From NCBI GenBank assembly GCA_030704615.1, contig CM060732.1, positions 11,160,001 through 11,224,000 on the forward strand: DNA of 64,000 bases, given 5' to 3'. The DNA comes from Takakia lepidozioides. Taxonomy: Eukaryota; Plantae; Bryophyta. Under the pieces are notes generated by a model. That model searched no databases. It was not told where the DNA came from and saw only the letters and a program-made list of their open reading frames with translations. This document shows, in pieces, positions 2,710 to 52,263 of the stretch; the first letter of the stretch is position 1, and every line of letters begins with the position of its first letter. Made by a program: the position numbers and the translations under genes.

Positions 2710-4209
2710 GTTTACCTTGTTCAACAAGTGTGGCCACCCCCTAACGATGATCGGGAAACCACCCTGGATGTCATCTTTTTCCATGGATTCCAGTTTGGAA
2801 AGGAAAGCAGTGTTTCACAGCACACATGGGTGCATCGTGACAATCATGAACTCTCCTGGCCAGTGAAGTGGCTGCCAGAAGACCTGGAAGGAACAGTGCG
2901 TGTTCTACTCGTATCTCATAGTGCAGATGTTAGATATTCCAACATCCAAGCTGTTGACGACTTTGGCAGGAGGTTGCAGCAAAGCTTAGTCAGGTACATT
3001 GCTTCTCACTTGAATACTATGGTTTGCTAGCCTGTTCATTGAACAAGAAGATAAGGCAGTCAAAAGAGATTCTCACTTTCGCTGGAATGTGAAGGCAGAT
3101 TCGGAGCCTAGCTCCTAGTCCTTGATCTTATCCACCTAGATGTTGAAAGGAAATGGTGAGGGTTAGCTGTTCAGAACAGGATCTGGAAATGTCATGCACA
3201 TTTTGGCGTCCAAGATCAAAATCTGATATTGCTTGATCCTGTTCATGTGCAGTTCATCTCGTTCCAGTTTCGGATGGCAAAAACCAATTGTGCTTGTTGG
3301 CCATGGCTACGGAGGTTTGGCTGTGAAGAGCTTAGTGGTACATACTGCAAGGACTGAAACCATGCCATGTGCGAACGAACTGGACAAGGAGGCTGCTGAG
3401 AATGCAAAAGCGTTCTTATCAAATCTCCGAGGCATTGCACACTATGCTGTTCCCCGTTCCGCAATGAACTTGGGAAGTTTTGGTAAATTGGAGCCCTCAG
3501 GAAATATACAACACGACCTGATTGAGCGTTTATCAACAGAATTTGAGGGAGTTATTTGTAGACTTCAAATCCACATCTTTGCTTTCGGAGAGGGCAAACC
3601 AACACAAAAATGGGTACATTCTCTGGAGTTTTTCATAATGACAAACCAAGAAATGCTGCGGAGTATTGGTACTAATAAAATTTACTAATTGGATAGGAAC
3701 ATGATGCAAGGCATTTTATGCTAGGTGTCAAGTAGTGCAGTATTTTAGGGTTAGCTAGGTGTATGTGCTGCTTCAACATTAACTAAGACTGGAGAATTTT
3801 TCCCCTCTGAGAGGTTGAATTGCTTACTTTCCATCACATGTGGAGAACACAGACCTATGGTAAATCTCCCTGCACAAGCAACGATGCACAGTGCAACAAT
3901 GCCGTGCAGATGAATCAGAAGCTGAATTGTGTCATCTATGGTCTAAGTGGTTTAGATATCTTGAAGGCTGCCTTGTATATAACAACTCTTTGAGGTTCAA
4001 GAAAGTGTTACTACTCCAGTGGTTGAAAAGATGAATTTTCTATCTCGTAGGGTTGGATTGTGCCGTATGAGTCTGCCATAAGATTATCTGGCTGTAACAA
4101 CTACAAAGTGGAGGAGTCTGATCATCTGGATATCACGCGACCTCCTTCCAGAGAACATATCATATATGACAAATTGTTGATGCTGCTGAAGATTTGCCAA
4201 AATCCACCG
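2710..4209 (+). CDS. Alpha/beta-hydrolase (SERAC1/PGAP1/DUF676-like, the type found at the N-terminus of bryophyte HNL NLRs); exons ~2710-2993, 3253-3613, 4051-4209; 5' exon(s) not identified
   Basis: Motifs DVIFFHG, WPVKWLPEDL, VRVLL, KPIVLVGHGYGGLAVKSL, IFAFGEG, IVPYESA, DHLDITRP. GT-AG junctions are phase-compatible (2, 0). Confidence 0.75.
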
Positions 4210-4389
4210 GTACGTCCTCATGTCAGTAGTGGACATTTTATCTCCTCGCCATAATTGTCCCTCACTTGTGTTATCATTAATGTGTCCCTGTATTCCGCCG
4301 ATGTAATCTGGATTTTGCAGCATAGTGATGACTAATGCGCAACACCTTCCACTGAGCTCTAGGTGAGCAATATCTCCCTTATGCTACAG

Positions 4390-6516
4390 GCTATCCTGCT
4401 GCAATCAATCTTACAATCTGACCCTGTGAAATGTGTCCTACAACGTCTCTTCTCAGCTTTAGTGCCCATTGTTTTTTGTAGATTGTGTTCTTAGCATATT
4501 TGCATATTGTGCATATGTTCTAATTTTTATCTGGTCACTGGAGTGCAGGGTGATGTGAACTTTGCTCTAATGATCCCTCAACTTGAAGGAGGGTGCCCAG
4601 AGGACTACAAAGCCATAACTGAGTTGTTCCTCGAGGTATGAATCAATGGATGATGACCATAAGTGTATTCTATTCACTAATCTTCACCGGAACTTGAGGC
4701 TTAAAAGCGGAACCTATTGATCCGGAGTTTGTGTTTTGCAGCGCAACATGATCAGGGAGGCAATTGCTTTTCTTCTGGATGTTTTGAAGCCTAACCTTCC
4801 AGAGCATGCCATGCTTCAAACTAAGGTAGAGTCAGCTCTGACTCTTACAATGTGCAGTGCAGATGGACTTGCATGGTCTGTGCCCTCCTGTAACTTGTCT
4901 GTTGGTTTCCTGTTCTTTCCCCTTGCTATGGTGTGCATCTTGATTATCCTTCCATGACCTTGTTACTAGTCCCCCCCCACTTTACATAGCTACTTTGCAC
5001 GTACTTAGTACTTACCTGTAGATATGATCGACAAGGTCATGTCAATCCACTGGATAATGCGGCTGACATGTGTAAATGAATGTTGTTGGTTATGCAGGTC
5101 TTGAAGATCAGTCTGGTCGCGTCCCCCAGCATAGCTGATTCAATTTTGGCAAAGGGCATGTTCAGCCATTATGACCGTCCTCAAATTGCTGAGCTCTGTC
5201 GGAAAGCTGGTCTTTACATGCATGCCCTTCAGGTCCTATTTCTGCTTTTGCACTCTTGCACTTTGTTTTCTGCTCATCATACTCCAATCTGTTAATTTTG
5301 TTGATCTACACTGGTGCGTCTTGACTCAGGGCCGGAATATACTTTCCATTAGGCCTGAGTGCACCTGCTCTTGGAGGAACAGGAAATATCCTGAATACAC
5401 TGACTGAAAGCGGAGACCTGTTATCGGGAGTGAATATTTTGTCCCCTCTTATTTGTGTTCTTTTTAATCTAGTTTTGTCTCCACATTAATTTTTGCAGTG
5501 TGTCTGGATGTATACATCATCCTTGCCCTGGAGGTCAAACAGTCACTTTTATGTCCATGCAAATAAAGTTTCTAATGATCCTTCCTTGTGCAGGTGAACC
5601 CAGAAAATGCGCCTCTGGTGGTTGGGCAATTGCTGGATGATGGCCACCCCAAGGATTTCATCAAGGACCTTATCTTGTCTGTCTGCTCTTTACTGCCAGT
5701 GGAGGCACTGGTTGATGAGTGTGAGAAGAGGTAATAAATTGTTCCAGGGTGGCTTTATGTCATTTTTAATCTGTTTGTTTGCTCCTAGCATGATGTCTAT
5801 GTCACAGTCAATTCTCAGGTTATGCGCAAGATGAAAATGTATGGAAAGAGGGCACATTACTGACTTTTTAATTCCATGTGGAAGCTGTCTGTTGTCTCAG
5901 GATGAATCAAACTAACAGTTTGATGGGTTGGACAGGAACCAGTTGGGATTGCTGACTCAGTTCTTAGAGCATCTTGTGAGTGAAGGGAGCGAAGATGTGC
6001 ATGCACATAATGCATTGGGGAAGATCATCGTTGATACAAACAAAGATCCAGAGCTCTTTCTGACCAGAAACCGCTACTATGACTCCAAGGTCATTGGTAA
6101 ATATTGTGAGACAAAGGATTACACACTTGAAGTAATTGCATATAGACGTGGTCAATGTGATGCTGAGCTTGTTGATGTTCCAAACAAGCACAAGCTCTTC
6201 AAGGTTCAGGCCAGGTACATCCCAACTCTATCTCCCGTCATTTGTGATTTTGTCTTGTGTTTTGCGTGATGTCTTAGAAAAGATAAAGAAATTACCTGAC
6301 TACATCTTGTTGGCGCTTCTTAGGTATGTGGTGGAGCGCATGGATCCTGACCTGTGGAAAAAGGTTATGCACCCAGAGTATCCAGAATACAGGAAGCAGC
6401 TTACTCTTGAGGTGTTGTCTATTGTTCTACTAGAGAGCAAGAACCGAGAGCAGGTGTTAGCCCTGTTAGCCACTTTGAAGGCACACTTGCCCCATGAGTT
6501 AGTTGAGCTTTTATAG
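4390..6516 (+). CDS. CHC: Clathrin heavy chain-derived exons (partial duplicate, internal exons deleted): 4390-4425, 4549-4635, 4742-4825, 5098-5232, 5594-5730, 5936-6214, 6324-6516
   Basis: Peptides [87 protein letters not shown] match plant clathrin heavy chain. All exons are open with canonical GT-AG. Stop at 6514-6516. Confidence 0.85.
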
Positions 6517-6584
6517 TCAAGAATGTTTTTCAAAACTCTGCCTTGAGTGGTAATCACCTCTAAAATATACTCTTTCTCACCATC

Positions 6585-6652
6585 TTTCCGCTCAAACTGG
6601 GCGCGGGGTCAATGGCCACAAGGCTACGGCAACCAACATCTTATGAGTACAT
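6585..6652 (+). mobile_element. 68-bp extremely 5'-truncated LINE copy (3' end of the 1-2161 family) with 14-bp target-site duplication
   Basis: Matches the last ~65 nt of the LINE (..gcgcggggtcaatggccacaaggctacggc..cttatgagtaca). Flanked by tctttctcaccatc at 6571-6584 and 6653-6666. Confidence 0.85.
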
Positions 6653-6684
6653 TCTTTCTCACCATCAATTACAGTGGTGGCATT

Positions 6685-9717: not shown

Positions 9718-10356
9718 TTGTCCTTGTACCTTCGTTTCATTCGGCAACGACAAAGGTACTGGTACTCACCAGACGAGTTTGATCATAAAATAGTGGAAGC
9801 ATTTGTAGACCTCCGCGCCCGGAAGCCCAAAAACTCGAATTGGCAGAAGGACAAGCTCTTCTGTCCCTTCTGTGAAGAGGTTATCAAGAACAAAATCCAA
9901 CTAAATCGGCATTGTGTCGACACGGGTTGCAAGGAGATTGTTGCAATGATTCCACAGGATTTCAAGCCTTGGCCGATACTGAAAGAAATGTCGATTGTCA
10001 AAGAGGCCACAAAGCGCTTGCGCGGATCAGTGTTGGACCCCCGCACTTTGGAATTAGACGAAGTGCGCGCACGGTATGGCGTCCATTGTGGTGGCCCATC
10101 AATGGAGGATTCGCAAGTGCAGGGAACGCCGGACGCTCCCAAAAAACATAAACTGAGTGATGGGGCCCAAAAAAAGGAGAGGCAAAAAAAGGAGAAGGCT
10201 GCAAGGTCTGCTCGCGAGGCAAGGGCAAAATCCACGCAACAGACTGAACCCCGTCCTGGGCGGCAGACCCACACCATCAGTACTGATACTGAAAGTGAAT
10301 CTGCTCAGGGCATGGAAGGGGTGACAAGTCCAGTGGACATTGACTTGCCTGACTAG
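9718..10356 (+). CDS. Element-encoded ORF/exon with C2HC zinc-finger-like motif and basic tract
   Basis: CPFC-x11-H-x5-C (CPFCEEVIKNKIQLNRHCVDTGC) and a KKERQKKEK tract. Open in both arms. Confidence 0.5.
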   Translation: MSLYLRFIRQRQRYWYSPDEFDHKIVEAFVDLRARKPKNSNWQKDKLFCPFCEEVIKNKIQLNRHCVDTGCKEIVAMIPQDFKPWPILKEMSIVKEATKRLRGSVLDPRTLELDEVRARYGVHCGGPSMEDSQVQGTPDAPKKHKLSDGAQKKERQKKEKAARSAREARAKSTQQTEPRPGRQTHTISTDTESESAQGMEGVTSPVDIDLPD

Positions 10357-11154
10357 ACTCGGCAGCAGACTCACACAAATATCGCGACCCATGCCATCGG
10401 TTTAGGGTCAAAACCAAAAACTCAACAGAGCGTTGAAGGGCCAGTCTGCCCTAGCACATTGCGCCTCGTTGACTTTGGGCTTTTCCCATCAGAGTGCCCA
10501 CCAATTGGGGATCCAGACTTCTTCCGTTATTTCTACAGAGTTGCCCAATCAGATCTGCTCCGCACATTCATCCGACAGGCGGAACAGAACTGGTTGAACA
10601 GCTTTGAAGATGAAGATGACGATGATGAAGTAGAGGAGGTAATGCTCAGTCTGACCGCCCAGTCTATTCTCTGTGCTGTTTGAGTCCATCATCGGGGGGT
10701 CACATTGCCTATTCAGTCTGGTCAGTCCGCTGCGTTCTCTCCTCAGTCCGCTGGCTCACTCCGCTCGTTAGTTAGTCTGTTTTATATGGCTGCATTACTT
10801 ACTGAGTCCGTTTGTCAGTCCGCTGGTCCAGTCCACTAGTATAGTCTACTAGTTGCCTCCACCCTACGTACGCACGTTACAGTCTGATGGTCTGTGAGTC
10901 CAGTCCGCTGCATGAGGTGAATATAGAGTCCACGTCCATGTTCCTGACGTCCAAGTTCTCTGCTGTGTACCAGGATGAACGTGTTTCTATTCGTAGGGCC
11001 ATTCAGGCTTGGCGGATACCTAGCAATGATGCTCCTTTACAAGCGACTGCAGTGCGTGTGGAAGTGGACCGCGTGCGAGAGTACATATTATTGAAGTATC
11101 CTGGGTCATCTGCTGCTATAGCGGCATTACATATTCAAGACGCGTCGGGGGGGA

Positions 11155-12123
11155 ATGCGTCTGGGACAGCCGACTCTGCCATCCAGCAGACTCCCATTCA
11201 GCAGGCCGTCATCCAGCAGACTCCCGTTCAGGCAGCCTGTCATCCGGCAGACTCCAACGGAGCAGACTCCCAACGAGCAGCATGTCATCCTACAGACTCC
11301 TCTCCAGGAGCCCATCATGCAGCCCATGCCAATGGGAAGTCCTGTCATCCAACAGACTGCGGACCAGCAGACTGACCAGCATACTGCCTTTCTCTCACAT
11401 AGCACGGCACTTTTTGCAGTTTGGCGATCGCCATCACCGGTAATTCGACCTGGAGCTGAAGACCTCACACTTCCCCGGCTTAGGGTGGGAGAAATTAATC
11501 CCCATTTGGATTGGCATAATGAGCGCCACCGGATTGTTGCGGACCGCTGGTGGTCATTTGTACCCTTTCATTATTCCATGGAGTTTTCTATTGAGGAAGC
11601 CAACCATGTTCTAGAAGCCGCCTCTGCTGTTGCCATTGAAGCCACAAGCGACCAAAATGCGCCGCCTCTACGTGTGCAGCTAATTCTCATGGATGACCCA
11701 CGGCCTGAAGACCTCAAACATATGCCTATGGCACATCCAACCTTTGGGGTGCGAATAAAGCACTTGTTCGGATTGACTGAGGAGGACTTTGAGCGCATGG
11801 CAGCTTCCTTCCTACAACACAGATGGATGCAATTTGGCAATTTCCGCTCATACCACAAGTTGATGAAGGATCTGCATAGTTTGAGGATGGACTTACTCCA
11901 TGGAACAGACCATTCACAGAAGTTTGTGGTGGATGACGCATTGCACTGGTTTGCATTGGTGATGGAGCGAGCAGTATTCGACATTGTTTTGCAAAATCCC
12001 AATGTCTTCAAAGTCCTGTGGTGTGGAATCCCAACTGAAGACCGCATCGGCGCCATTGCTCATCTCGATGGAGTGCCGGCAAATCAAGGACATTGGCCTC
12101 GTCGGAAATCTCTTGGAAGGTAA
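11155..12123 (+). CDS. Element-encoded ORF/exon of unknown function (QT-rich N-terminus, globular-looking C-terminal domain)
   Basis: 322-aa ORF, mirrored at 21009-21976. No family recognised. Confidence 0.45.
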   Translation: MRLGQPTLPSSRLPFSRPSSSRLPFRQPVIRQTPTEQTPNEQHVILQTPLQEPIMQPMPMGSPVIQQTADQQTDQHTAFLSHSTALFAVWRSPSPVIRPGAEDLTLPRLRVGEINPHLDWHNERHRIVADRWWSFVPFHYSMEFSIEEANHVLEAASAVAIEATSDQNAPPLRVQLILMDDPRPEDLKHMPMAHPTFGVRIKHLFGLTEEDFERMAASFLQHRWMQFGNFRSYHKLMKDLHSLRMDLLHGTDHSQKFVVDDALHWFALVMERAVFDIVLQNPNVFKVLWCGIPTEDRIGAIAHLDGVPANQGHWPRRKSLGR

Positions 12124-13892
12124 AATGTTATGGGCAACTTTCGTGTTTTAGCTCAATTTCTTTTGCCAACTTTTTTAGAAGTTCACATTTGCATAAACAT
12201 GTGTTGCAGGGCGAGTTGATCTGGGAGACAAGCAAGTTCAGGCTGCTTTCGACTCTTTTGCCAGAGGTGCAAGGGACCTTGTCCTGGCTTTACAAGGAGT
12301 TCGGGAGACTGTCCCGGGTAATAGGCCGGATCACTCCCAGCAGACTGCCCCGCACACACATACTCAGTATGTGCAAACAGTACTGAGCGGGCAGCGAACT
12401 TTGCAGACTTTGCAGCAGACCGAAGAACAGACCGGCCAACAGACTGCCCCTCAGCCAACTGTGCAGCAAACCAGCGAACATGGCCACCAGACTGCCCCTC
12501 AGCAGACTGTGCAGCAGACCGACGAATCCAGCCAGCAGATTGCCCCTCAGCAAAACCGTATCATAGATCTTACAGAAGAGTCCGAGGAAGCAATTGCCGG
12601 TGGGTCTTCCATACATGTTCTTGATGTTTCCCAAGTCCATGGAGATCCGAACACCCAGCTGGCTGTCCACCAGACTGACCAGTGGACACATGGAAGGACT
12701 GTCGAGCAACCTGTGGTGGGGCAGCATACTGTCTTCATTGATGAGCACATTGAACCGCAGACTAACCAGCAGACTGCATAGGTCACAGATGGAAAAACTG
12801 ACCAGGATGGCTAGGAGCGGCAGACTACACAGCTCAGCTCTGACTGCACAGTTCAAACTGCACGGCCTGACCAGCACACTGCACACTTCACAGAGGGAAG
12901 GACTGACGACCAACCTGCCACCGAGCACATTGCCCACATTGAGGAAGAGACTGAACCGCAGAGTTGCCAGCAGACTGCACAGTTCACAGACGAAAGGACT
13001 GACGAAAAACCGGCGGCCGAGCAGACTGCCCACATTGAGTAACAGGCTGAACATGCTGGCATGCAGACTGACAAGGAACCACATGCGGCGCAGACACCGT
13101 CGCGTATAGCGCTGGATTACATGGAGTCTGCTCCCTCACCCCTTGGACAGGTTGTGCCATTTCTTCTTTCAGCACTGTTGTTTATGTTTTAGCACATTGT
13201 GAAATTGGCCTAATTCGACATTTTGCTCGGTATCCTCACAGGATGTTCATCCCTCCGTCGGCAGACTGTCTATTTCTAAGGACATGACATCTTCTGCCCA
13301 TGCTGCAAACGTGGGATCGACAACCAAGAAAGGTGTGGGGGTGAGCACGCCCCCCGATGCGCGGGTCAGTTCTACGCATGCGACCCACGAAGCTGCAAAG
13401 ACAGGTCCAGCAAGTGTAAGCAAACCTGCTGACCAGCCTCTGTTGTGAAGTAGGGCGGCAGCACTGCGTTTGTCTGCTCTATCCAGCCCGCCTACAGCTG
13501 TCCCTGCTTCCCAGGGGAGAGGCAAAGCCAAGAAGCGGACTAGAGTGGATCCTGCTAAGGAGGTCGAGGAGGGTCCTAGTACCAAGAGACCGGCGGCGAA
13601 AAAGTCTGGCGTCTTTATGAACAAGAACCGCAAGCTGGCCTTGGACATGGACAAAGATGTGGGTCGTTTCCTGGAGCAGCACAGGTGAGTGCTGTGCTCA
13701 GTCTCCTCGTCTGTCTTTGTCGTTAAGTGCTTTGCGCTCTGTTGTGGTCAGTCTGCTGTTGGTTTCATCATTGTCTGTTGTGGTTAGTCTTGTCAGTCTG
13801 ATGAATTGTTCAGCCTGTAGAGTGTTTGGTACCATGTTGACGTCAGTCTGTTCAGTACATGAGGCTTCTCGAAGGATGGTCTGCTCTGTGCA

Positions 13893-14907
13893 GGATGGGT
13901 GCTCGGTTTGGCAAAGCACATGCTCTGCACGTGGAGGCGGGTAATTCCATGCTGATGTATTTTGAAGGGGACCAACGGTTTGAATTCGGAGTGTCGCCGG
14001 ATGACATAAAGGCGCTCCAGAAGGTTGAGTCGGAGTGCACAGATAGACTCCTGGAGCTGTGGTGTCGATTCTATGAGAAGTCGGTTGAGGCTGCGTTCAC
14101 CAACACTATTGATGTTCTTCCAACGTCGACGTGGATGGTGTTGAAGTCATTGGGGGTGGGGCAACATGAAAGCCTTCTGGAGGTCTTGAAAGGTTGCCTC
14201 AGCACTGAACGACTGGGCAAGGACTTGAAAGACTGCGATTTCATCTTGATGCCAATTGGGGACGAGTAAGAACTATTCCGAGTCTGCTGAGACTATCTCC
14301 TGAGTCATAGTCTGGTTTCGCAGTGTCGTCTTGACTCTGAGCAATTAAGTTGACCTCTGTATTTGTGCAGTGGACTGGGTTTGAAGATTGAGTCTGCTGA
14401 GTGGTCGGTCTGCTGAGTGTCAATCTGCTGAGTCTGCCCATCATGATTGTGCAATGACGCCATGCTGTTTGATACCATTGCAGGGGGCACTGGAGTGTTT
14501 GTATCATCGACCTCTGCAAGGGCTGTTACACTCACCTGAACTCTAGGTCGGACTCGCATAAATGTCCCTTTGTTCTAGGGTGGATTCGGAAGCTTCATGC
14601 TGAGTGCTTAGGGTACTCGATGGACTCACCAGAGTGGCTGGAGATTGTCCAAGCATTTCAGTTCCACGCGCCTGATGTGCCCCAGCAACCATTCAGCTGG
14701 GAGTGTGGCTTTTACGTCATGTCATTCATTCAAGTGTTTTATGAGTGGGTAAAAGTCAGAGCAAATGTCTCCAAGACTGCAAAGCCAGAGAGAGGAACAC
14801 ATTTCACGGCGGACTGGTTTACTTTCAAGTTTGCACTTGGGCAGCGAATGCAGTGTGCCCAGTATATCGTGCGGGGGTTGGACAATGTAGAGAAATTGCT
14901 CTCATGA
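13893..14907 (+). CDS. Ulp1-like SUMO protease (peptidase C48) catalytic exons ~13893-14265 and 14484-14907
   Basis: Phase-2 intron 14266-14483 joins ILMPIGDE to GHWSVCIIDL, followed by HLNS and VPQQPFSWECGFYV (His, Asn in place of Asp, Gln, Cys). Confidence 0.8.
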
Positions 14908-15548
14908 GTATGATGTACTTGTCCTGTGAAGTCTATGTACCGAAATAAAAAATGCGAGTCTTTTCGCTTACTATTCCAGTGGTGATGAGCACTTTTGTGT
15001 ATTATGGGTGCTGGCATGTTTTGTAATGTTGTCACTAAACTCAATGGACACAATGGTGTCAATTTTTCCATGCACTGTGCACCGGAGTCTGCTGAGCTTG
15101 AATGTGCGAGCAGTACGTTGCCGAGGCTAGGACTGGTGGGTCTAGTACCTAGTCTGGTAGGCACCATGTCCATGAGTCCGCTGGGACGCTGGATTGGCAT
15201 GAGTCGTTAGGGAGGTAGTCCACTGGAGCCTGTCCATTTTGAGTCTACTGTTGTGGATGAGTCTGCTTGAGACTTAGTGTGTCCAGCAGGCTGCTGGAAG
15301 AGTTGCAGGGATGAGGTGGAAGTGTGGTGAGCAGACTTTTGGAGTGGGCAACAGACTGACCAGTAGACTGGCTTACTGGCGCTCGCAGTCTGTTGACTGT
15401 GACTCTGTTGGGAGACTGTGCGTGAGTCCGTTGGGAGACTATGCTTGGGAGACTGTGTGGGAGTCAGTTGGGAGACTGGAGGAGTCCGTTCTTAGTATGT
15501 GCATTAGTCCATTGCGGACTTGTATTTCAGAAAGGGACAATGCTACCA

Positions 15549-17660: not shown

Positions 17661-18224
17661 TTTCTCTTTTTCCACACAGTCTCCCAAGCATAGTCTCCCA
17701 ACGGACTCACGCACAGTCTCCCAACAGAGTCACAGTCAACAGACTGCGAGCGCCAGTAAGCCAGTCTGCTGGTCAATCTGCAGCCCACTCCAAAAGTCTG
17801 CTCACCACACTTCCACCTCATCCCTGCAACTCTTCCAGCAGCCTGCTGGACACACTAAGTCTCAAGCAGACTCATCCACAACAGTAGACTCAAAATGGAC
17901 AGGCTCCAGTGGACTACCTCCCTAACGACTCATGCCAATCCAGCGTCCCAGCGGACTCATGGACATGGTGCCTACCAGACTAGGTACTAGACCCACCAGT
18001 CCTAGCCTCGGCAACGTACTGCTCGCACATTCAAGCTCAGCAGACTCCGGTGCACAGTGCATGGAAAAATTGACACCATTGTGTCCATTGAGTTTAGTGA
18101 CAACATTACAAAACATGCCAGCACCCATAATACACAAAAGTGCTCATCACCACTGGAATAGTAAGCGAAAAGACTCGCATTTTTTATTTCGGTACATAGA
18201 CTTCACAGGACAAGTACATCATAC

Positions 18225-19239
18225 TCATGAGAGCAATTTCTCTACATTGTCCAACCCCCGCACGATATACTGGGCACACTGCATTCGCTGCCCAAGTGCA
18301 AACTTGAAAGTAAACCAGTCCGCCGTGAAATGTGTTCCTCTCTCTGGCTTTGCAGTCTTGGAGACATTTGCTCTGACTTTTACCCACTCATAAAACACTT
18401 GAATGAATGACATGACGTAAAAGCCACACTCCCAGCTGAATGGTTGCTGGGGCACATCAGGCGCGTGGAACTGAAATGCTTGGACAATCTCCAGCCACTC
18501 TGGTGAGTCCATCGAGTACCCTAAGCACTCAGCATGAAGCTTCCGAATCCACCCTAGAACAAAGGGACATTTATGCGAGTCCGACCTAGAGTTCAGGTGA
18601 GTGTAACAGCCCTTGCAGAGGTCGATGATACAAACACTCCAGTGCCCCCTGCAATGGTATCAAACAGCATGGCGTCATTGCACAATCATGATGGGCAGAC
18701 TCAGCAGATTGACACTCAGCAGACCGACCACTCAGCAGACTCAATCTTCAAACCCAGTCCACTGCACAAATACAGAGGTCAACTTAATTGCTCAGAGTCA
18801 AGACGACACTGCGAAACCAGACTATGACTCAGGAGATAGTCTCAGCAGACTCGGAATAGTTCTTACTCGTCCCCAATTGGCATCAAGATGAAATCGCAGT
18901 CTTTCAAGTCCTTGCCCAGTCGTTCAGTGCTGAGGCAACCTTTCAAGACCTCCAGAAGGCTTTCATGTTGCCCCACCCCCAATGACTTCAACACCATCCA
19001 CGTCGACGTTGGAAGAACATCAATAGTGTTGGTGAACGCAGCCTCAACCGACTTCTCATAGAATCGACACCACAGCTCCAGGAGTCTATCTGTGCACTCC
19101 GACTCAACCTTCTGGAGCGCCTTTATGTCATCCGGCGACACTCCGAATTCAAACCGTTGGTCCCCTTCAAAATACATCAGCATGGAATTACCCGCCTCCA
19201 CGTGCAGAGCATGTGCTTTGCCAAACCGAGCACCCATCC
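18225..19239 (-). CDS. Ulp1-like protease, mirror copy in right arm
   Basis: ORF translations 18225-18512 and 18863-19273 are identical to the left-arm copy. Confidence 0.8.
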
Positions 19240-21008
19240 TGCACAGAGCAGACCATCCTTCGAGAAGCCTCATGTACTGAACAGACTGACGTCAACATGG
19301 TACCAAACACTCTACAGGCTGAACAATTCATCAGACTGACAAGACTAACCACAACAGACAATGATGAAACCAACAGCAGACTGACCACAACAGAGCGCAA
19401 AGCACTTAACGACAAAGACAGACGAGGAGACTGAGCACAGCACTCACCTGTGCTGCTCCAGGAAACGACCCACATCTTTGTCCATGTCCAAGGCCAGCTT
19501 GCGGTTCTTGTTCATAAAGACGCCAGACTTTTTCGCCGCCGGTCTCTTGGTACTAGGACCCTCCTCGACCTCCTTAGCAGGATCCACTCTAGTCCGCTTC
19601 TTGGCTTTGCCTCTCCCCTGGGAAGCAGGGACAGCTGTAGGCGGGCTGGATAGAGCAGACAAACGCAGTGCTGCCGCCCTACTTCACAACAGAGGCTGGT
19701 CAGCAGGTTTGCTTACACTTGCTGGACCTGTCTTTGCAGCTTCGTGGGTCGCATGCGTAGAACTGACCCGCGCATCGGGGGGCGTGCTCACCCCCACACC
19801 TTTCTTGGTTGTCGATCCCACGTTTGCAGCATGGGCAGAAGATGTCATGTCCTTAGAAATAGACAGTCTGCCGACGGAGGGATGAACATCCTGTGAGGAT
19901 ACCGAGCAAAATGTCGAATTAGGCCAATTTCACAATGTGCTAAAACATAAACAACAGTGCTGAAAGAAGAAATGGCACAACCTGTCCAAGGGGTGAGGGA
20001 GCAGACTCCATGTAATCCAGCGCTATACGCGACGGTGTCTGCGCCGCATGTGGTTCCTTGTCAGTCTGCATGCCAGCATGTTCAGTCTGTTACTCAATGT
20101 GGGCAGTCTGCTCGGCCGCCGGTTTTTCGTCAGTCCTTTCGTCTGTGAACTGTGCAGTCTGCTGGCAACTCTGCGGTTCAGTCTCTTCCTCAATGTGGGC
20201 AATGTGCTCGGTGGCAGGTTGGTCGTCAGTCCTTCCCTCTGTGAAGTGTGCAGTGTGCTGGTCAGGCCGTGCAGTTTGAACTGTGCAGTCAGAGCTGAGC
20301 TGTGTAGTCTGCCGCTCCTAGCCATCCTGGTCAGTTTTTCCATCTGTGACCTATGCAGTCTGCTGGTTAGTCTGCGGTTCAATGTGCTCATCAATGAAGA
20401 CAGTATGCTGCCCCACCACAGGTTGCTCGACAGTCCTTCCATGTGTCCACTGGTCAGTCTGGTGGACAGCCAGCTGGGTGTTCGGATCTCCATGGACTTG
20501 GGAAACATCAAGAACATGTATGGAAGACCCACCGGCAATTGCTTCCTCGGACTCTTCTGTAAGATCTATGATACGGTTTTGCTGAGGGGCAATCTGCTGG
20601 CTGGATTCGTCGGTCTGCTGCACAGTCTGCTGAGGGGCAGTCTGGTGGCCATGTTCGCTGGTTTGCTGCACAGTTGGCTGAGGGGCAGTCTGTTGGCCGG
20701 TCTGTTCTTCGGTCTGCTGCAAAGTCTGCAAAGTTCGCTGCCCGCTCAGTACTGTTTGCACATACTGAGTATGTGTGTGCGGGGCAGTCTGCTGGGAGTG
20801 ATCCGGCCTATTACCCGGGACAGTCTCCCGAACTCCTTGTAAAGCCAGGACAAGGTCCCTTGCACCTCTGGCAAAAGAGTCGAAAGCAGCCTGAACTTGC
20901 TTGTCTCCCAGATCAACTCGCCCTGCAACACATGTTTATGCAAATGTGAACTTCTAAAAAAGTTGGCAAAAGAAATTGAGCTAAAACACGAAAGTTGCCC
21001 ATAACATT

Positions 21009-22244
21009 TTACCTTCCAAGAGATTTCCGACGAGGCCAATGTCCTTGATTTGCCGGCACTCCATCGAGATGAGCAATGGCGCCGATGCGGTCTTCAGTTG
21101 GGATTCCACACCACAGGACTTTGAAGACATTGGGATTTTGCAAAACAATGTCGAATACTGCTCGCTCCATCACCAATGCAAACCAGTGCAATGCGTCATC
21201 CACCACAAACTTCTGTGAATGGTCTGTTCCATGGAGTAAGTCCATCCTCAAACTATGCAGATCCTTCATCAACTTGTGGTATGAGCGGAAATTGCCAAAT
21301 TGCATCCATCTGTGTTGTAGGAAGGAAGCTGCCATGCGCTCAAAGTCCTCCTCAGTCAATCCGAACAAGTGCTTTATTCGCACCCCAAAGGTTGGATGTG
21401 CCATAGGCATATGTTTGAGGTCTTCAGGCCGTGGGTCATCCATGAGAATCAGCTGCACACGTAGAGGCGGCGCATTTTGGTCGCTTGTGGCTTCAATGGC
21501 AACAGCAGAGGCGGCTTCTAGAACATGGTTGGCTTCCTCAATAGAAAACTCCATGGAATAATGAAAGGGTACAAATGACCACCATCGGTCCGCAACAATC
21601 CGGTGGCGCTCATTATGCCAATCCAAATGGGGATTAATTTCTCCCACCCTAAGCCGGGGAAGTGTGAGGTCTTCAGCTCCAGGTCGAATTACCGGTGATG
21701 GCGATCGCCAAACTGCAAAAAGTGCCGTGCTATGTGAGAGAAAGGCAGTATGCTGGTCAGTCTGCTGGTCCGCAGTCTGTTGGATGACAGGACTTCCATT
21801 GGCATGGGCTGCATGATGGGCTCCTGGAGAGGAGTCTGTAGGATGACATGCTGCTCGTTGGGAGTCTGCTCCGTTGGAGTCTGCCGGATGACAGGCTGCC
21901 TGAACGGGAGTCTGCTGGATGACGGCCTGCTGAATGGGAGTCTGCTGGATGGCAGAGTCGGCTGTCCCAGACGCATTCCCCCCCGACGCGTCTTGAATAT
22001 GTAATGCCGCTATAGCAGCAGATGACCCAGGATACTTCAATAATATGTACTCTCGCACGCGGTCCACTTCCACACGCACTGCAGTCGCTTGTAAAGGAGC
22101 ATCATTGCTAGGTATCCGCCAAGCCTGAATGGCCCTACGAATAGAAACACGTTCATCCTGGTACACAGCAGAGAACTTGGACGTCAGGAACATGGACGTG
22201 GACTCTATATTCACCTCATGCAGCGGACTGGACTCACAGACCAT
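21009..22244 (-). CDS. Mirror copy of unknown element ORF (1-bp indel near 21797 relative to left arm)
   Basis: 411-aa ORF equals left-arm ORFs 10887 and 11155 joined by loss of one G. Confidence 0.4.
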   Translation of the reverse strand: MVCESSPLHEVNIESTSMFLTSKFSAVYQDERVSIRRAIQAWRIPSNDAPLQATAVRVEVDRVREYILLKYPGSSAAIAALHIQDASGGNASGTADSAIQQTPIQQAVIQQTPVQAACHPADSNGADSQRAACHPTDSSPGAHHAAHANGSPVIQQTADQQTDQHTAFLSHSTALFAVWRSPSPVIRPGAEDLTLPRLRVGEINPHLDWHNERHRIVADRWWSFVPFHYSMEFSIEEANHVLEAASAVAIEATSDQNAPPLRVQLILMDDPRPEDLKHMPMAHPTFGVRIKHLFGLTEEDFERMAASFLQHRWMQFGNFRSYHKLMKDLHSLRMDLLHGTDHSQKFVVDDALHWFALVMERAVFDIVLQNPNVFKVLWCGIPTEDRIGAIAHLDGVPANQGHWPRRKSLGR

Positions 22245-22773
22245 CAGACTGTAACGTGCGTACGTAGGGTGGAAGCAACTAGTAGACTATACTAGTGGAC
22301 TGGACCAGCGGACTGACAAACGGACTCAGTAAGTAATGCAGCCATATAAAACAGACTAACTAACGAGCGGAGTGAGCCAGCGGACTGAGGAGAGAACGCA
22401 GCGGACTGACCAGACTGAATAGGCAATGTGACCCCCCGATGATGGACTCAAACAGCACAGAGAATAGACTGGGCGGTCAGACTGAGCATTACCTCCTCTA
22501 CTTCATCATCGTCATCTTCATCTTCAAAGCTGTTCAACCAGTTCTGTTCCGCCTGTCGGATGAATGTGCGGAGCAGATCTGATTGGGCAACTCTGTAGAA
22601 ATAACGGAAGAAGTCTGGATCCCCAATTGGTGGGCACTCTGATGGGAAAAGCCCAAAGTCAACGAGGCGCAATGTGCTAGGGCAGACTGGCCCTTCAACG
22701 CTCTGTTGAGTTTTTGGTTTGACCCTAAACCGATGGCATGGGTCGCGATATTTGTGTGAGTCTGCTGCCGAGT

Positions 22774-23415
22774 CTAGTCAGGCAAGTCAATGTCCACTGG
22801 ACTTGTCACCCCTTCCATGCCCTGAGCAGATTCACTTTCAGTATCAGTACTGATGGTGTGGGTCTGCCGCCCAGGACGGGGTTCAGTCTGTTGCGTGGAT
22901 TTTGCCCTTGCCTCGCGAGCAGACCTTGCAGCCTTCTCCTTTTTTTGCCTCTCCTTTTTTTGGGCCCCATCACTCAGTTTATGTTTTTTGGGAGCGTCCG
23001 GCGTTCCCTGCACTTGCGAATCCTCCATTGACGGGCCACCACAAGGGACGCCATACCGTGCGCGCACTTCGTCTAATTCCAAAGTGCGGGGGTCCAACAC
23101 TGATCCGCGCAAGCGCTTTGTGGCCTCTTTGACAATCGACATTTCTTTCAGTATCGGCCAAGGCTTGAAATCCTGTGGAATCATTGCAACAATCTCCTTG
23201 CAACCCGTGTCGACACAATGCCGATTTAGTTGGATTTTGTCCTTGATAACCTCTTCACAGAAGGGACAGAAGAGCTTGTCCTTCTGCCAATTCGAGTTTT
23301 TGGGCTTCTGGGCACGGAGGTCTACAAATGCTTCCACTATTTTATGATCAAACTCGTCTAGTGAGTACCAGTACCTTCGCTCCTTCTTCAGTCTGGTTTG
23401 GTGCACAAAATCCAC
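22774..23415 (-). CDS. Mirror copy of the zinc-finger-like element ORF
   Basis: Same CPFC..H..C motif, with four amino-acid differences in the shared part. Confidence 0.5.
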   Translation of the reverse strand: MDFVHQTRLKKERRYWYSLDEFDHKIVEAFVDLRAQKPKNSNWQKDKLFCPFCEEVIKDKIQLNRHCVDTGCKEIVAMIPQDFKPWPILKEMSIVKEATKRLRGSVLDPRTLELDEVRARYGVPCGGPSMEDSQVQGTPDAPKKHKLSDGAQKKERQKKEKAARSAREARAKSTQQTEPRPGRQTHTISTDTESESAQGMEGVTSPVDIDLPD

Positions 23416-25440: not shown

Positions 25441-27030
25441 ATGGCGGAAAATGCCCTGACTTTATGCGAAGAGACTATCGATTCGGTCCAGTGCCTCACG
25501 TCCACCAACCAAGATTTGCAGATCAACAAGCAACAGTGTAAGCTACTGGCAAAGAAACTCTTAGGAATCCAAGTGACACTGGACAAGATCCGAGAAATCT
25601 CATCTGAAGAAGCAAGTGCCAATCGTTTTCATGCTGCAGATCACTGGAAGCAGGCCATCGAGGAGCTTTGTCGCATACTGAATAAGGCCAAGGTTCTGAT
25701 CAAGGACTATTGCTGCAAGGATCAGTGGCTGAATGCAGCGATCAGGCATGGCGATAAGAAGGAAGATTTTGCGGGATTACGAGGTGGACTGGCACACTTG
25801 GGTTCTGTGCGACATTTTCTCCCTGGGGATCAGTCAAGAGACGCTCCTTTACGCAGAAGCTTGCGACGGTAAACTTAGCATCACAGACTACGACGCTCTG
25901 GAGGCAGCGGCAAAGGAGGACCTAGACAGCCTCGAGACTTCCTTGAAGGTCCTCACGGACCATCATGTTTGTGTGGAGAGCTGCAAGCAAGGGTATCAAA
26001 CTGAGCAATGTCTTGCAGCGCAGCTGTTGAGGAGATTGCAATCCCCGGCCTCGGCCTCGCCAGTCACCCCAGATGTCGTCCGGAAATCGCCACTTATTTT
26101 GTGGGCGAATGCTGGAGAACTTGTTGACGTAAGTATGTTAGGGAACGGTAGCTTTGGGATGGTCTATGAAGTTACGTGGCAAGGCGAAAAGTACGCAAGG
26201 AAGGTATTCTTTGGAACGAAGACCTCTGGAGGTGCGGGGTTGGGACGAAAGTCCACAAAGAAGAAATCCTCCTCGGCAAGGGGGAACTCATTCTTCGAGG
26301 AAAAGGTGGCTGCTCTAGCGGGACTCAATCATCCCCACATCGTGCGGCTAGTTTGCTGCTCTCAGAGCAAGGAGGACAGCCTTCTGATGGAATTGATGAC
26401 CACTGACCTCTATGACCTCTTGAAAGGCAGACCCACGCCATTTTCGAATCTTCGAGCCGTTGACCTCATGCTGCAAATCGCCGAGGGGATGAAATATTTG
26501 CATGCCCAACAAAAAGTTCACCGTGATCTTAAGTCTATGAACATTCTGGTCAGCAGATCTTCCACCTTCTCTAGGAGAAGACGCACGCGCGTATGCAAAG
26601 GTGGGTGATTTGGGCGCATCAAAGATCAAGAATAACAGTACTAGGTACACTAATCAGACACTCGAGATTGGTTCCAGATTGTGGAAGGCGCCGGAGGTTT
26701 TCAGTTTGGTGGATGAAGAAGAGCGTCCTAGCAGGTCTCACCCTTGGACAGCAGATGTTTACAGTTTTGGGATTGTCTACGCTGAGATACACAGGAGAGG
26801 AGCCATTTGGGGAGGGTTTAACCGGGATTCGGAAGAGGGTGAAGGGCGGGGAGAGGCCATGGCTGCCGGTTAGTTGTCCAGCCAGGTTGGCTTTCTTGAT
26901 TGGAAAATGTTGGAGTGGTGACCCTCTCGAGAGACCTAATTTCTCAAAGATTTGCAGAGAGCTGAGATACATCAAAGGGCTCCTTCTGAAAGGTTCGGAT
27001 TGGCTCTTGGATTTTCGAAGAATGCGGTAA
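25441..27030 (+). pseudogene. DUF1221 (HeLo/4-helix-bundle) plus protein kinase, plant MLKL-like; about three frameshifts
   Basis: N-terminus INKQQCKLL..AIEELCRILNKAKVLIKDYCCKDQWLNAAI is DUF1221-like. Kinase motifs LGNGSFGMVY, YARK, HRDLKSMNIL, KVGDLG, WKAPE, ADVYSFG, ERPNF. Frame breaks near 25775, 26580 and 26790. Confidence 0.8.
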
Positions 27031-27729
27031 TTCTGGTCTGTTTGTACCCTTCGGTAGGCATTTGTGCAGCTGTAGACCTGGGGCCTTGATGTGGAGTCGA
27101 GCATATGCCCGATCCCGCAGTCTGGGACTTGAAGCGGGATACCTACTAAGAAGACCAGATTGTCTTAGTCTGTACGGCTTGAGGAATGTAAGCCCTTACA
27201 AATGTCATCTGGGAAATGTCAGGGTGCAGTGGGGTGTAGTAGTTCCTCTGGACGGTGACCGTTGTTTGTCGTATAATCTCGATATGTGGATTCTATTAAG
27301 TAGGATTTGGAGCAGCACTTCCGCCATGTGTTGGTCTTGGAAGGATGACTGGTCCAGGTCGTCCGCAATGGACATGACCTCTCGGTTGTGTCGAGCCAAA
27401 GTGGGCATGGTTGGGAGCTGTTAAGAGTCCTCGGTAGAGGTACTTAGCGCACCCCTGCCCGTTGAATGATGCCACCATTATCATGGCTCACACTTGTCTT
27501 CCGACCACCCTTCTAGGGTGAGAATGCTTTTGGTGGATGTTTGTCGGTGGAGGGCCCTCGCTTGTTGCAATCTCCTGTAATAGAAGGAAAAAAGAATGCT
27601 AACAGGCCTTGCAATGTGAGGACCCTGAAGACTGGATCCCTGGTTTCCTTCACCAACTACCACTGGCTTGTTTAATAATCATCTTTAGAAAGGCCAGTCC
27701 ACGGCTCTCAAAGTTATTTGCTTTTTCAG

Positions 27730-29156
27730 TCTGAAATTGAGATCTCGCAACTTGAAGGAGGGCGCCCAGAGGACTACAACACCATAACTGACCTGTTCCT
27801 TGAGGTGTGAATCAATGGATGACTGCGATAAGTGTATTCAATTCACTAGTCTTCACCTGAACTTGAAGCTTAAAAAAGGAATCTATTAATTATGAGTTTG
27901 TGTTGTGCAGCGCAACATGTTCAAGGAGGCAATTGCTTTTCTTCTGGATGTTTTGAAGCCTAACCTTCCAGAGCATGCCATGCTTCAGACTAAGGTAGAG
28001 TCAGCTCTGACTCTTACAATTTGCAGTGCAGATGGACTTGCATGGTTTGTGCCCTCCTGTAACTTGTCTGTTGTCTGTTCTTTCCCCTTGCTATGCTGTG
28101 CATCTTGTTACTAGTCCCCTCCACTTTACATAGCTACCTTGCAAGCACTTACCTGTAGATATGATCGACAAGGTCATGTCAATCCAGTGGATACTGTTTT
28201 TCCACTGGGTAATGCGGCTGCCAATGAATGTTGGTTATGCAGGTCTTGAAGATCAGTCTGGTCGCATCCCCCAACATAGCTGATTCAATTTTGACAAATG
28301 GCATGTTCAGCCATTATGACCGTCCTCAAATTGCTGAGCTCTGTCGGAAAGCTGGTCTTTACATGCATGCCCTTCAGGTCTATTTCTGCTTTTGCACTCT
28401 TGCAGTTCTCTCTGCTCATTATACTTCAATCTGGTGATTTTGTTGATCTACACCGGTGCGTCTTGACTCAGGGCCGGAATATACCTTACCTTTTAGGCCT
28501 GAGTGCACCTGCTCTTGGAGGAACAGGCAATATCCTGAATACACACTGACTGAAGGTTATCAGCAGTGAAATTTTTTCCTCCTCTTATTTTGTGTTCTTT
28601 AAAATCTAGTTTTGTCTCCACATTAATTTTTGCAGTGTGTCTGGATGTATAAATCATACTTGCCCTGGAGGTCAAACAGTCACTTTTATGTCCATGCAAA
28701 TAAAGTTTCTAATGATCCTTCCTTGTGCAGGTGAACCCAGAAAATGCGCCTCTGGTGGTTGGGCAATTGCTGGATGATGGCCACCCCAAGGATTTCATCC
28801 TGTCTGCTCTTTACTGCAGGTGGAGGCACTGGTTGATGAGTGTGAGAAGAGGTAATAAATTGTTCCAGGGTGGCTTTATGTCATTTTTAATCTGTTTGTT
28901 TGCTCCTAGCATGATGTCTATGTCACAGTCAACTCTCGGGTTATGCACAAGATGAAAATGTATGGAAAGAGGGCACATTACTGACATATTAAATGCATGC
29001 GGAAGCTGTTTGTTGTCTCAGGATGAATCAAACTAACAGTTTGATGGGTCGGACAGGAACCAGTTGAGATTGCTGACACAGTTCCTAGAGCATCTTGTGA
29101 GTGAAGGGAGCGAAGATGTGCATGCACATAATGCATTGTGGAAGATCATTGTTGAT
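27730..29156 (+). pseudogene. CHC: Second clathrin heavy-chain fragment, paralog of 4549-6035 including introns
   Basis: Same exons, introns and internal exon deletion. Frameshifting deletion at ~28799. Truncated after IIVD at ~29156. Confidence 0.85.
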
Positions 29157-29574
29157 AGTAGCTACACTGCACTAGTTTTTGCAGCATTATTTGCTTGGGA
29201 GGTTCCTTCCTCGGGCATCGTCAACTCGAAGCAGTGTAGAACACAGCTTTCTACACTGCTTTTCCACCGCATAAATTTTACTTATGAATGTCTAATTGTA
29301 TGAGATACATAAATTACCACACACCCAGTTCAAGAAGGGCTAGACCACTACAGCAGCCCTGGCCGGGTCACCTGCAGCGAACCCCACACCTCAGGCCCCA
29401 TTCTCCAGGCGCTTGGTCAGTGCCTCCGCTCCCAGCCCACCAGCAATTCAGGTCTTACCAGTTGAAAGATTTCTTGGATGATCTGAAGAGCTCCCTGAGG
29501 CATTATCCAACCTACAATCACAATCCATCCACATGGCATAAAAGTGAATTCCATGCGTCATAATATCAGCTCTA

Positions 29575-30370
29575 CCTGCACACCTATCTCCATAGGTGCT
29601 AGAAGAATTGGAGAATAGAGTAACTCACTGTTTAGAGTTCCTCCGAGGCACTTTCGAGTACGCATTGATGGTGATTTTTTCATACTCCGACATCTCATCA
29701 CCAGTAACTTGTATGATAGGATCTGCATTCGAATATAAAAAATACTTCATGAAGGTGTCATGTTTGTTTCTGGTGATAGTATATTGCTCGCCAGAACCTA
29801 CCGTTTTCTCTATCACGCCAGAGAGGCCTCGTGTCACAGTAAAGGGATGGCCAGTCTTGTTGATAATGTCTGTTGACTCCACACTCGCGAATACTCGCCC
29901 GAGGCTGTAACTGAAGCCCATCCATATAAACATGTTAGCTCATAAAGAAAATCACTTAGATGTCTTCAAATATCGGCACAAGAACCAGTCAATCAGTAAA
30001 ACAACCTCGAAGTGCGAGTGCCAGCAACAGTGGTGAATAGACCAGCTTACCGACTTCTGCGGGAAGGCCGCGGGTCACCTGATTTTGAGTAACCTTTTAT
30101 GGTGACACTTTCATTCCCGGCTATGTCATCACCATCAACTTCAAGAACAAGATGTAAATTGTCGTATAGACCATACTTGTAGTCCTTGTTGTAGCAGATG
30201 TCATAGGTATCACCATCTTTCAGTGTGGTCAAGCATGAAGTTGCTGCCTCCCCTTTTGCCTTGTCTAAACCATCTGAGGATTCTTCCAAAACTGGAGGAA
30301 GTACGGCGTCAGAGGATTCTATCAACGCCATAGGACGGCCAGTCTTGTTGATAATTTTGGTCCCTTCCAT
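29575..30370 (-). CDS. Small gene with two homologous ~95-aa domains (exons 30370-30051 and ~29911/29905-29629); resembles a small non-seed-plant family (DUF7748-like, tentative)
   Basis: Both ORFs share T.IINKTG.P....G..Y.I....Y.LY....V.GD.....E..TI..YSK. Phase-2 donor G|GTAAG and a matching acceptor are present. Confidence 0.6.
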
Positions 30371-30957
30371 ACCTCAATATCCCCTCTTTCTTCTCTTCAC
30401 CACAGGAAAGATACTCCGGAGGTTGTAAATAGGAACTCGACACTCAGTATTCTGGACCAAACAAATGTAGTTATGGTGTGCATCTTGTGGAAATGTTATA
30501 GAAAAGCACCTTGGCAGACATTTTCTCAATATGTGAAGAGCAAGATTATCAATGTAATGAAGCGCGTGGAGAGATAAATACAGTAGTTGAATACTTGTGC
30601 TCTCTTCTGCATGAGTTGGGAAAAAATGTCCTTACGCTGGCTTGGGTTTATCCTTGTTCGGCGAAATTGCGTCAACTCTTCAGCACCTCAATGCGTTTCT
30701 TCAACACCTGAAAGAGAGCCTACACACTTTTCTTCTCCCGTTACAAACAAACGGAAGTATAGTGGCCAGCACGATTAAGACCCACAAATAACAAATACCT
30801 TCAGATCAGAGATTTATATGAGAATCCAGTATCGTGTTTACCTTCCACAATTCACGACTAAAAATCTGAAAGTTAGTGAATGTACGTGCCAGGCACTTCT
30901 ACTGGCAGACAGTGCAACGAATAGCAAAGCTCCACACAAGTAGCCATTGGAGAGAGA

Positions 30958-51444: not shown

Positions 51445-52263
51445 CACCCTCTTATATTATGGGATACAAATTCTGCTTGACCTTGCATCATGGCAGATAG
51501 CTCTGCTTTCACCCAAGCAGGGTTCAATCCAAAGGGCCTCAATTGCACGCTAAGATTTGGAGTCTTGTGATCTTAGATTTCTCTCTGAAAGTGACCACTA
51601 GGCAGCTGAGTAAATACGCTTCAGAAACGGCGTCCCCCTGACCAAGTAAAGCTTCACACATATGCCAAATGACAGAACAGCCTTGAACCACCTACTTTCT
51701 GAACAGCCGACAAATAGCAACAGTAGAACTGCTTTTGCTGTATTTGTGCACTAAACAGAAAGCTGTCACTAATTTCAGAAAACAGTCCATAAAATGTTGT
51801 CATGCTAACATCAGTCACAAGCGCTAGTTGATAGACACTTTAAAGTCCTAATTCAAGACAGGTTGTCCCCTCACAGCAAAGGATCTGAGAAGAACTCCTG
51901 CCAGAGCAGTTCTTTGCTGAATCCTTGGCCAGTGTGCAAGAACTACGCGGAAGTGAGCCCTTAGACCGGTTCCTATTGCCTCGTCTCTTTGCACCATGCG
52001 AGTTATCTACAGACTATGCCCTCAAGAGTTTCCCACAGCCAACGTTAGCAGGGGAATGTTCAGTAGCAGATCTCCCCCTGCCTTTAATATCCAGTAGGTG
52101 ACTGCCGATTGTCGCTCTGCAGCAATATGTGTCAAATCTGTGCTACTTAGCCCTCTACATTAAAGGGGGAGCTCAACATGCTTGCAAGTTCACTTGCGGC
52201 GGAATTTCGATGGGCTAGGCGACCCTGAGGACAAACTCCTCAGTGACGGGCAGGCCTAATCGA

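Follow-up and report, generated by a model that had tools for sequence, protein, structure and literature searches.

The described genes closest to the one reported here are those of the Hyd-NLR (HNL) receptors, which, according to PMC3352924, carry phase-0 introns both inside the hydrolase and between the hydrolase and the NBS. In PMC11218826, cell death in tobacco is reported for two hydrolase domains from Marchantia, and NLRs of non-flowering plants, Hyd-NLRs included, are described as carrying integrated domains. Two other sources place a Clathrin/VPS repeat among the NLR domains of Fabaceae (PMC11734081) and describe oomycete effectors that enter via clathrin-mediated endocytosis (PMC10291037). 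Here, we describe a gene of the moss Takakia lepidozioides in which a hydrolase of this kind is joined to repeats of the clathrin heavy chain (CHC). It lies at positions 2710–6516 of a 64,000-nucleotide stretch (the window; contig CM060732.1 of assembly GCA_030704615.1, positions 11,160,001–11,224,000), on the plus strand, as do the features below unless stated otherwise. The interpretation that we favor, while giving it slightly less than an even chance, is that this is a transcribed Hyd-NLR hydrolase–clathrin chimera that arose by DNA rearrangement, formerly yielded a protein that was subject to selection, and is now decaying.

Ten sequencing runs were found, seven of which held part of the window, and the contigs of four (X1, X5, X6 and X7) were aligned to it. 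X1 and X7 are DNA runs; X5 and X6 come from two separate studies and were taken as RNA by guess, as no run holding this stretch is recorded as RNA, and the spliced joints bear the guess out. One run was realigned at a lower (80%) likeness, where the species' own CHC gene is covered by short pieces only. The ten exons proposed in a first-pass annotation of the window could be reproduced: each is preceded by AG and followed by GT, with the last ending in TAG, and together they form a frame of 1755 nucleotides (584 amino acids) with no internal stop. Nine of the ten are supported by RNA contigs, but the 36-nucleotide exon at 4390–4425 is skipped in both X5 and X6, and the supported frame is therefore 1719 nucleotides and 572 amino acids long. 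Contigs of both runs contain the joints 2993 to 3253, 3613 to 4051, 4209 to 4549, 4635 to 4742, 4825 to 5098, 5232 to 5594 and 5730 to 5936, whereas the passage from 6214 to 6324 forms a joint in X5 only, with a loose end in its place in X6. These joints are all absent from the DNA runs X1 and X7, and no single contig spans the whole transcript. The first-pass annotation had placed the passage into clathrin sequence at 4390 or 4549 and a further joint between 5232 and 5594; the latter is present, whereas of the former only 4549 is joined to 4209. This hydrolase–clathrin joint occurs in two of two RNA studies, at depths of 26.4 (X5) and 37.2 (X6), and the chimeric transcript is thus real. A second X6 isoform (4209 to 4742, depth 24.5) skips the exon at 4549–4635 and remains in frame.

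These observations bear on the possibility that the gene is an assembly artefact, or two unrelated neighboring gene wrecks of which the hydrolase ends in HSDD*. The region is rich in transposons, and an unspliced X5 contig covers 4180–4575 (depth 8.9), including the acceptor at 4320 and the HSDD* stretch behind it (4321–4335). However, the joint that would end the hydrolase in this way, raised in the first-pass annotation as grounds for abandoning the fusion, is found in no RNA contig, and a DNA contig of X1 (3662–4653) crosses the genomic hydrolase–clathrin join in another individual, in addition to the fusion joints of the two RNA studies. We therefore consider such an artefact very improbable; the HSDD* stretch is possibly the remnant of a former next exon.

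The 5' end of the gene extends beyond the proposed exons. Position 2710 is a phase-0 splice acceptor with no start codon, and the first in-frame ATG, at 3362, is preceded by eight out-of-frame ATGs. In the X5 contigs, 32 nucleotides of an exon farther upstream are visible, which contains two stop codons when read in the frame of the hydrolase; this exon was sought and not found in the window. One explanation, that exon 2710 begins with a frameshift common to all alleles, was rejected: the spacing behind the acceptor is the same in relatives, with Q four to five residues ahead of a VxxxxP motif in 16 of 24 motif-bearing relatives. Exon 2710 is thus in its native frame, and the shift in X5 lies upstream of it. 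Also rejected was a 109-codon open stretch at 2383–2709, treated as intron because it contains no ATG and a 9-nucleotide insertion at 2546 in X1 creates a stop. Farther upstream, a long interspersed nuclear element (LINE) at 1–2164, cut by the window start, likely lies inside intron 1.

The hydrolase occupies three exons, each bounded by RNA joints and supported by alignment to relatives: exon A (2710–2993; motifs VIFFHG and WP..WLPEDL), exon B (3253–3613; nucleophile elbow GHGYGG, with ATG 3362) and exon C (4051–4209; histidine motif DHL), which ends in the phase-0 donor where relatives enter NB-ARC. These exons returned no match in a word-indexed homolog search, Pfam or a PDB sequence search. 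A HMMER scan with the hydrolase gave 94 matches, on which the hydrolase comparisons rest, with E values of 1e-47 to 1e-50 for the best full-domain ones; NB-ARC is carried by 7 of the 17 longer matches scanned, and the closest full-domain relatives, P0127 (35% identity) and P0130 (38%), are hydrolase–NB-ARC proteins. In the alignment, exons A–C span the entire hydrolase domain, and the clathrin exon sits where relatives have the linker and NB-ARC. The introns at 3613 and 4209 are in phase 0, in agreement with HNL genes as compared by phase with the published text (PMC3352924), and that at 2993 is in phase 2. By sequence, the hydrolase is thus of the Hyd-NLR type, which agrees with the first-pass annotation. 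That annotation had also likened the gene to receptors with an integrated decoy domain, and here the comparison fails: the transcripts continue into clathrin exons, and P-loop, kinase-2, LRR and MHD patterns are absent from all six frames of the window (there is one stray GLPL match), so the gene, lacking an NB-ARC, does not belong among the NLRs with integrated domains.

From its substitutions, the hydrolase is predicted to be catalytically dead. The serine of the GxSxG motif is replaced by glycine (GHGYGG), a position that holds serine in 16, cysteine in 7, glycine in 3 (one spurious) and another residue in 4 of the 30 pattern matches in relatives. A histidine conserved in seven of seven aligned relatives is arginine, while the late histidine motif (DHL) is retained. 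Neighbors of the hydrolase in the Atlas are DUF676/PGAP1-like clusters, and there is a full-length alignment to a Burkholderia hydrolase–AAA–TPR protein (score 131 against a shuffle maximum of 55; 23% identity); a single-sequence fold of exon B was uninformative (predicted local distance difference test score, 38.9). Elsewhere, the same hydrolase follows a kinase (P0154), accompanies a Roc domain (P0201) or is doubled before an NB-ARC–LRR–kinase (P0203), and these unusual contexts indicate that the domain has been shuffled often. Close paralogs of exon B (window 3262–3655) are also present in X1, X5 and X6.

The clathrin part corresponds to residues about 541–642 and 821–1022 of Marchantia CHC, about 305 of 1702 residues. 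Similarity begins at about 4393, in the exon that is skipped in RNA: this piece (4393–4425; residues about 530–540) is identical to the CHC locus L025 at 28 of 32 nucleotides (87.5%), and is thus a true clathrin remnant, with a weak donor, that marks the approximate genomic join. Six exons follow, placed by CHC alignment, Pfam and the RNA joints: 4549–4635 (residues 541–569), which provides the fusion acceptor; 4742–4825 (570–597); 5098–5232 (598–642); 5594–5730 (821–866); 5936–6214 (867–959, human CHC 853–941; PF00637, E = 2e-16); and 6324–6516 (960–1022), whose TAG is premature relative to CHC. Similarity to L025 extends past this stop, after a 2-nucleotide insertion that shifts the frame, through a tail at 6517–6553, and contigs of X5 and X6 and one of X1 diverge into other sequence near 6550–6566. 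Between the third and fourth of these exons, the whole exons for residues about 643–820 (about 178 residues) are missing between two phase-0 sites, and the exon phases confirm that the frame is kept across the deletion. Because the deletion amounts, by Pfam profile positions, to about one repeat plus one helix pair, we infer that the helical register was kept as well. Genomic CHC loci, L029, L030 and L056 among them, have matching exon borders, so the piece is a copy made at the DNA level; no repeats accounting for the breakpoints were found. Unlike other plant CHC genes, some long CHC loci that group near Sphagnum CHC in the tree, such as L004, L005 and L006, are intronless across CHC residues 377–1697.

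The clathrin piece has diverged more quickly than its parent. Its amino-acid identity to plant CHCs is about 73%, with values of 68–75% across all 30 CHC rows compared, whereas authentic land-plant CHCs are at least 90% identical to Marchantia CHC and L025 over the same columns. Synonymous divergence (dS) from the nearest CHC sequence, L025, is 0.87 and nonsynonymous divergence (dN) 0.15; dS rises to 1.3–1.5 for the rows that group with Sphagnum CHC and is saturated for the rest, a pattern that by itself is a weak pointer to a moss, more likely than a liverwort, as the host. A protein tree does not place the piece, which forms a long branch (0.94). Against the same outgroups its dN exceeds that of authentic CHCs by about 0.13 (0.165–0.171 compared with 0.030–0.039), and taking half of the dS to L025 gives a lower bound of about 0.3 on the branch ratio, the true value of which may be near 1. 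By eye, about 45 codons of pieces from the species' own CHC gave a synonymous difference of about 26%, against about 40% for L025; as a biased sample this count was not used, and only the L025 bound was. Despite this divergence, the piece retains features that neutral decay tends to destroy. Neutral simulation to the same divergence left no stop in 2–6% of 1000 runs (P = 0.02–0.06), the probability of no frameshift under neutrality was between 0.07 and 3e-6 for assumed indel rates of 0.03–0.14 per substitution, and that of intact splice sites by chance was about 0.05. Residue changes were tested under three mutation models at the 233 sites where L025 and L004 agree: 49 had changed, among which large hydrophobic residues numbered 8 where 14–17 were expected (P = 0.006–0.016), and the mean BLOSUM score of the changes was mildly high (P = 0.03–0.05). 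A test of core-to-polar changes was not significant under a GC-to-AT bias (P = 0.12–0.20). The preservation of frame, splice sites and hydrophobic core despite divergence suggests that the clathrin piece was once translated and kept folded under selection while it changed fast.

A second, broken copy of the internally deleted clathrin piece lies in the window at 27741–29157, matching 4572–6036 with introns included. It stands 23 kb from the first copy and without a hydrolase. In front of it, at a distance of 700 bp, is a pseudogene of an MLKL-like four-helix-bundle kinase (25441–27030), which was identified by sequence comparison and bears three frame changes. The two copies are 89% identical with gaps, and copy 2 has a 16-nucleotide exon deletion; near the site of this deletion, X5 and X6 contigs that resemble copy 2 lack 9 nucleotides. 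Between the copies, 22 of 505 exon sites differ (13 nonsynonymous, 9 synonymous), as do 76 of 899 intron sites.

The two copies are central to an alternative that we judge unlikely, in which the fusion is young and was never functional, and the clathrin piece had been shaped by selection while part of a truncated CHC paralog or of some other chimera, before being captured by the splicing of a broken HNL gene. Most of the amino-acid divergence is common to both copies; since their split, copy 1 has gained 7 changes and copy 2 has gained 6 (polarized by eye on CHC). Copy 2, without any hydrolase, has also been caught by out-of-frame read-through splicing from the kinase pseudogene. For the latter, one X5 contig joins the kinase (exact 20-mer at 26711) to a clathrin exon out of frame, most simply by a splice from 26735 to 28732 that meets an immediate stop, although it is possible that the contig reflects a template switch at a shared 6-nucleotide word. 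A young fusion would also be consistent with a close hydrolase paralog, that of exon B in X1, which is about 8% diverged (20 differences in 235 nucleotides), and with the finding of no hydrolase–clathrin fusion among the 94 hydrolase matches, 120 of 227 CHC matches and 80 of 155 CHC loci covered. However, both ends of copy 2 fall within copy-1 exons, so that copy 2 is a sub-fragment and seems to descend from a gene like copy 1; a longer parent derived from CHC was not observed, and the differences between the copies show a slight, non-significant constraint (P = 0.07–0.35).

The present state of the gene was read from contig variants, among 12 of 18 indels and 40 of 155 letter differences, in unphased contigs. 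X5 has a 2-nucleotide deletion at 4171 (27.8 of 27.8 in depth), after which the frame runs into a stop at the fusion joint. X6 has a 22-nucleotide deletion at 5134 (74.9 of 74.9) and a 1-nucleotide deletion at 5689 (63 of 126), which we assign to copy 1 because their depth is near that of the hydrolase exons (61) and they carry no copy-2 letters. Thus, both of the two RNA samples carry frameshift lesions, different in each, that prevent a full fusion protein, and the gene is likely decaying. Of the 23 exonic variants listed, one was dropped as equal to the copy-2 letter, and the remainder comprised 15 nonsynonymous and 7 synonymous changes (P = 0.3–1.0 against neutrality); two further X6 variants found at the lower likeness are nonsynonymous. 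The first-pass annotation had staked its chimera on clathrin exons that are transcribed and evolve non-neutrally, and this is borne out for transcription and for past selection, whereas current variation is compatible with neutrality.

It is also conceivable, although we again think it unlikely, that the gene still works as a decoy or adaptor without NB-ARC in genotypes with an open allele, the broken alleles being a loss-of-function polymorphism. Such polymorphism is common at immune loci. The window and the X1 contigs (among the indels listed) have an open frame, both fusion isoforms are in frame, and the substitutions spare the core. The biology reported elsewhere is also congenial: Marchantia hydrolase domains trigger cell death (PMC11218826) and oomycete effectors use clathrin-mediated endocytosis (PMC10291037). 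The frameshifts in both RNA samples, with their differing lesions, argue against continued function, as do the Ser-to-Gly and His-to-Arg changes at positions conserved in relatives, the LINE insertions upstream and in the 3' untranslated region of the window allele, and the eight out-of-frame ATGs before 3362, unless the upstream exon supplies the start.

Decay after a functional past remains the interpretation that we prefer, although several points weigh against it. The selection signal comes from the clathrin piece only and cannot be dated relative to the fusion, so the hydrolase may or may not have been attached at the time, and the X1 hydrolase paralog would fit a young fusion. The placement of the X6 deletions rests on depth and on lacking copy-2 letters in unphased contigs, and neither the window allele nor the X1 contigs carry an exon frameshift among the indels listed. 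Moreover, the variants derive partly from dead alleles that are neutral by construction, and hence carry little information about the open allele. Under decay after function, a genomic CHC segment would have landed behind the phase-0 donor of the hydrolase, replacing the NB-ARC–LRR portion. The product would have consisted of a hydrolase fold without catalytic activity, attached to a helical, 300-residue part of the clathrin leg. By the layout of CHC, this part lacks the adaptor-binding, light-chain-binding and trimerization regions and so could not build coats. The most likely role would have been that of a putative bait or scaffold: proteins acting on clathrin would bind to the leg piece, and the dead hydrolase would dock to a true Hyd-NLR. 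A bolder proposal, which we regard as doubtful, is that a working NB-ARC-less sensor guards clathrin-mediated endocytosis in this moss, baiting microbial proteins that grip clathrin and signaling via a partner Hyd-NLR, with open and null alleles coexisting. If so, the fact that the same clathrin piece landed a second time, downstream of an MLKL-like kinase, would be a hint that cell-death loci have recruited it more than once.

The locus is a verified instance in which exons of a Hyd-NLR gene were shuffled at its conserved phase-0 intron, the NLR core having been swapped for a piece of a protein that is among the most conserved in plants. In this piece, amino acids changed quickly while frame and core were retained, which is the signature that a recruited domain would be expected to show. 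Should open alleles make protein, they would offer a direct test of whether bryophyte NLR hydrolases need the catalytic serine and of whether plants bait microbes at clathrin; if the gene is decaying, it would clearly document how a chimeric immune gene was born and died within a single species.

The rest of the window is rich in mobile sequence. The LINE at 1–2164 is 98% identical to a LINE at 30955–33205 in the opposite orientation, which retains an open 838-amino-acid reverse-transcriptase-like open reading frame (ORF), so this family has been recently active. Within the 3' untranslated region of the fusion gene, sequence comparison identified a short LINE tail (6585–6652) that lies, with its 14-bp target-site duplication, at 6571–6666. 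In a very large inverted repeat (9753–15460 and 17672–23377), the two halves flank a 2-kb spacer and match at 99.7% identity along 5.7 kb, with outer arms that reach 7729 and 25008; its two ORFs have no Pfam match, and we take it to resemble a recent foldback of a DNA transposon. On the minus strand, two tandem small ORFs lie at 29628–30373, one matching DUF7748 and the other similar to it by eye without a Pfam match, and a PPR protein at 49051–51456 carries E, E+ and a DYW domain that ends after about 33 profile positions, likely through a frameshift.

How, then, does the fusion gene compare with known systems? Literature searches for clathrin together with NLR integrated domains and for chimeric moss NLR genes yielded no hydrolase–clathrin fusion, the integrated-domain supplement of PMC11218826 lying outside this coverage. 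Like the Hyd-NLR receptors (PMC3352924, PMC11218826), the gene has a whole N-terminal α/β-hydrolase and phase-0 introns, but it has clathrin repeats in place of NB-ARC and LRR, a glycine at the nucleophile position and an extra phase-2 intron at 2993. The hydrolase also resembles the SesB-like DUF676/PGAP1 hydrolases of fungal and bacterial NLR-like proteins, by its Atlas clusters and the full-length Burkholderia alignment, although the Burkholderia protein keeps GHSMGG and an NTPase domain. With CHC (PF00637) the gene shares native intron positions and the two residue ranges given above, but it has an internal deletion and a premature stop and both ends are missing, so that the terminal domain, full leg and trimerization domain of a functional CHC are absent. 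As in NLRs with integrated domains, a host housekeeping domain is joined to part of an NLR and outpaces the divergence of its parent while its core is spared; here, however, the host domain replaces the NLR core and is not added to it. The fusion gene is thus neither an HNL nor an NLR with an integrated domain, yet it is derived from the first and resembles the second.

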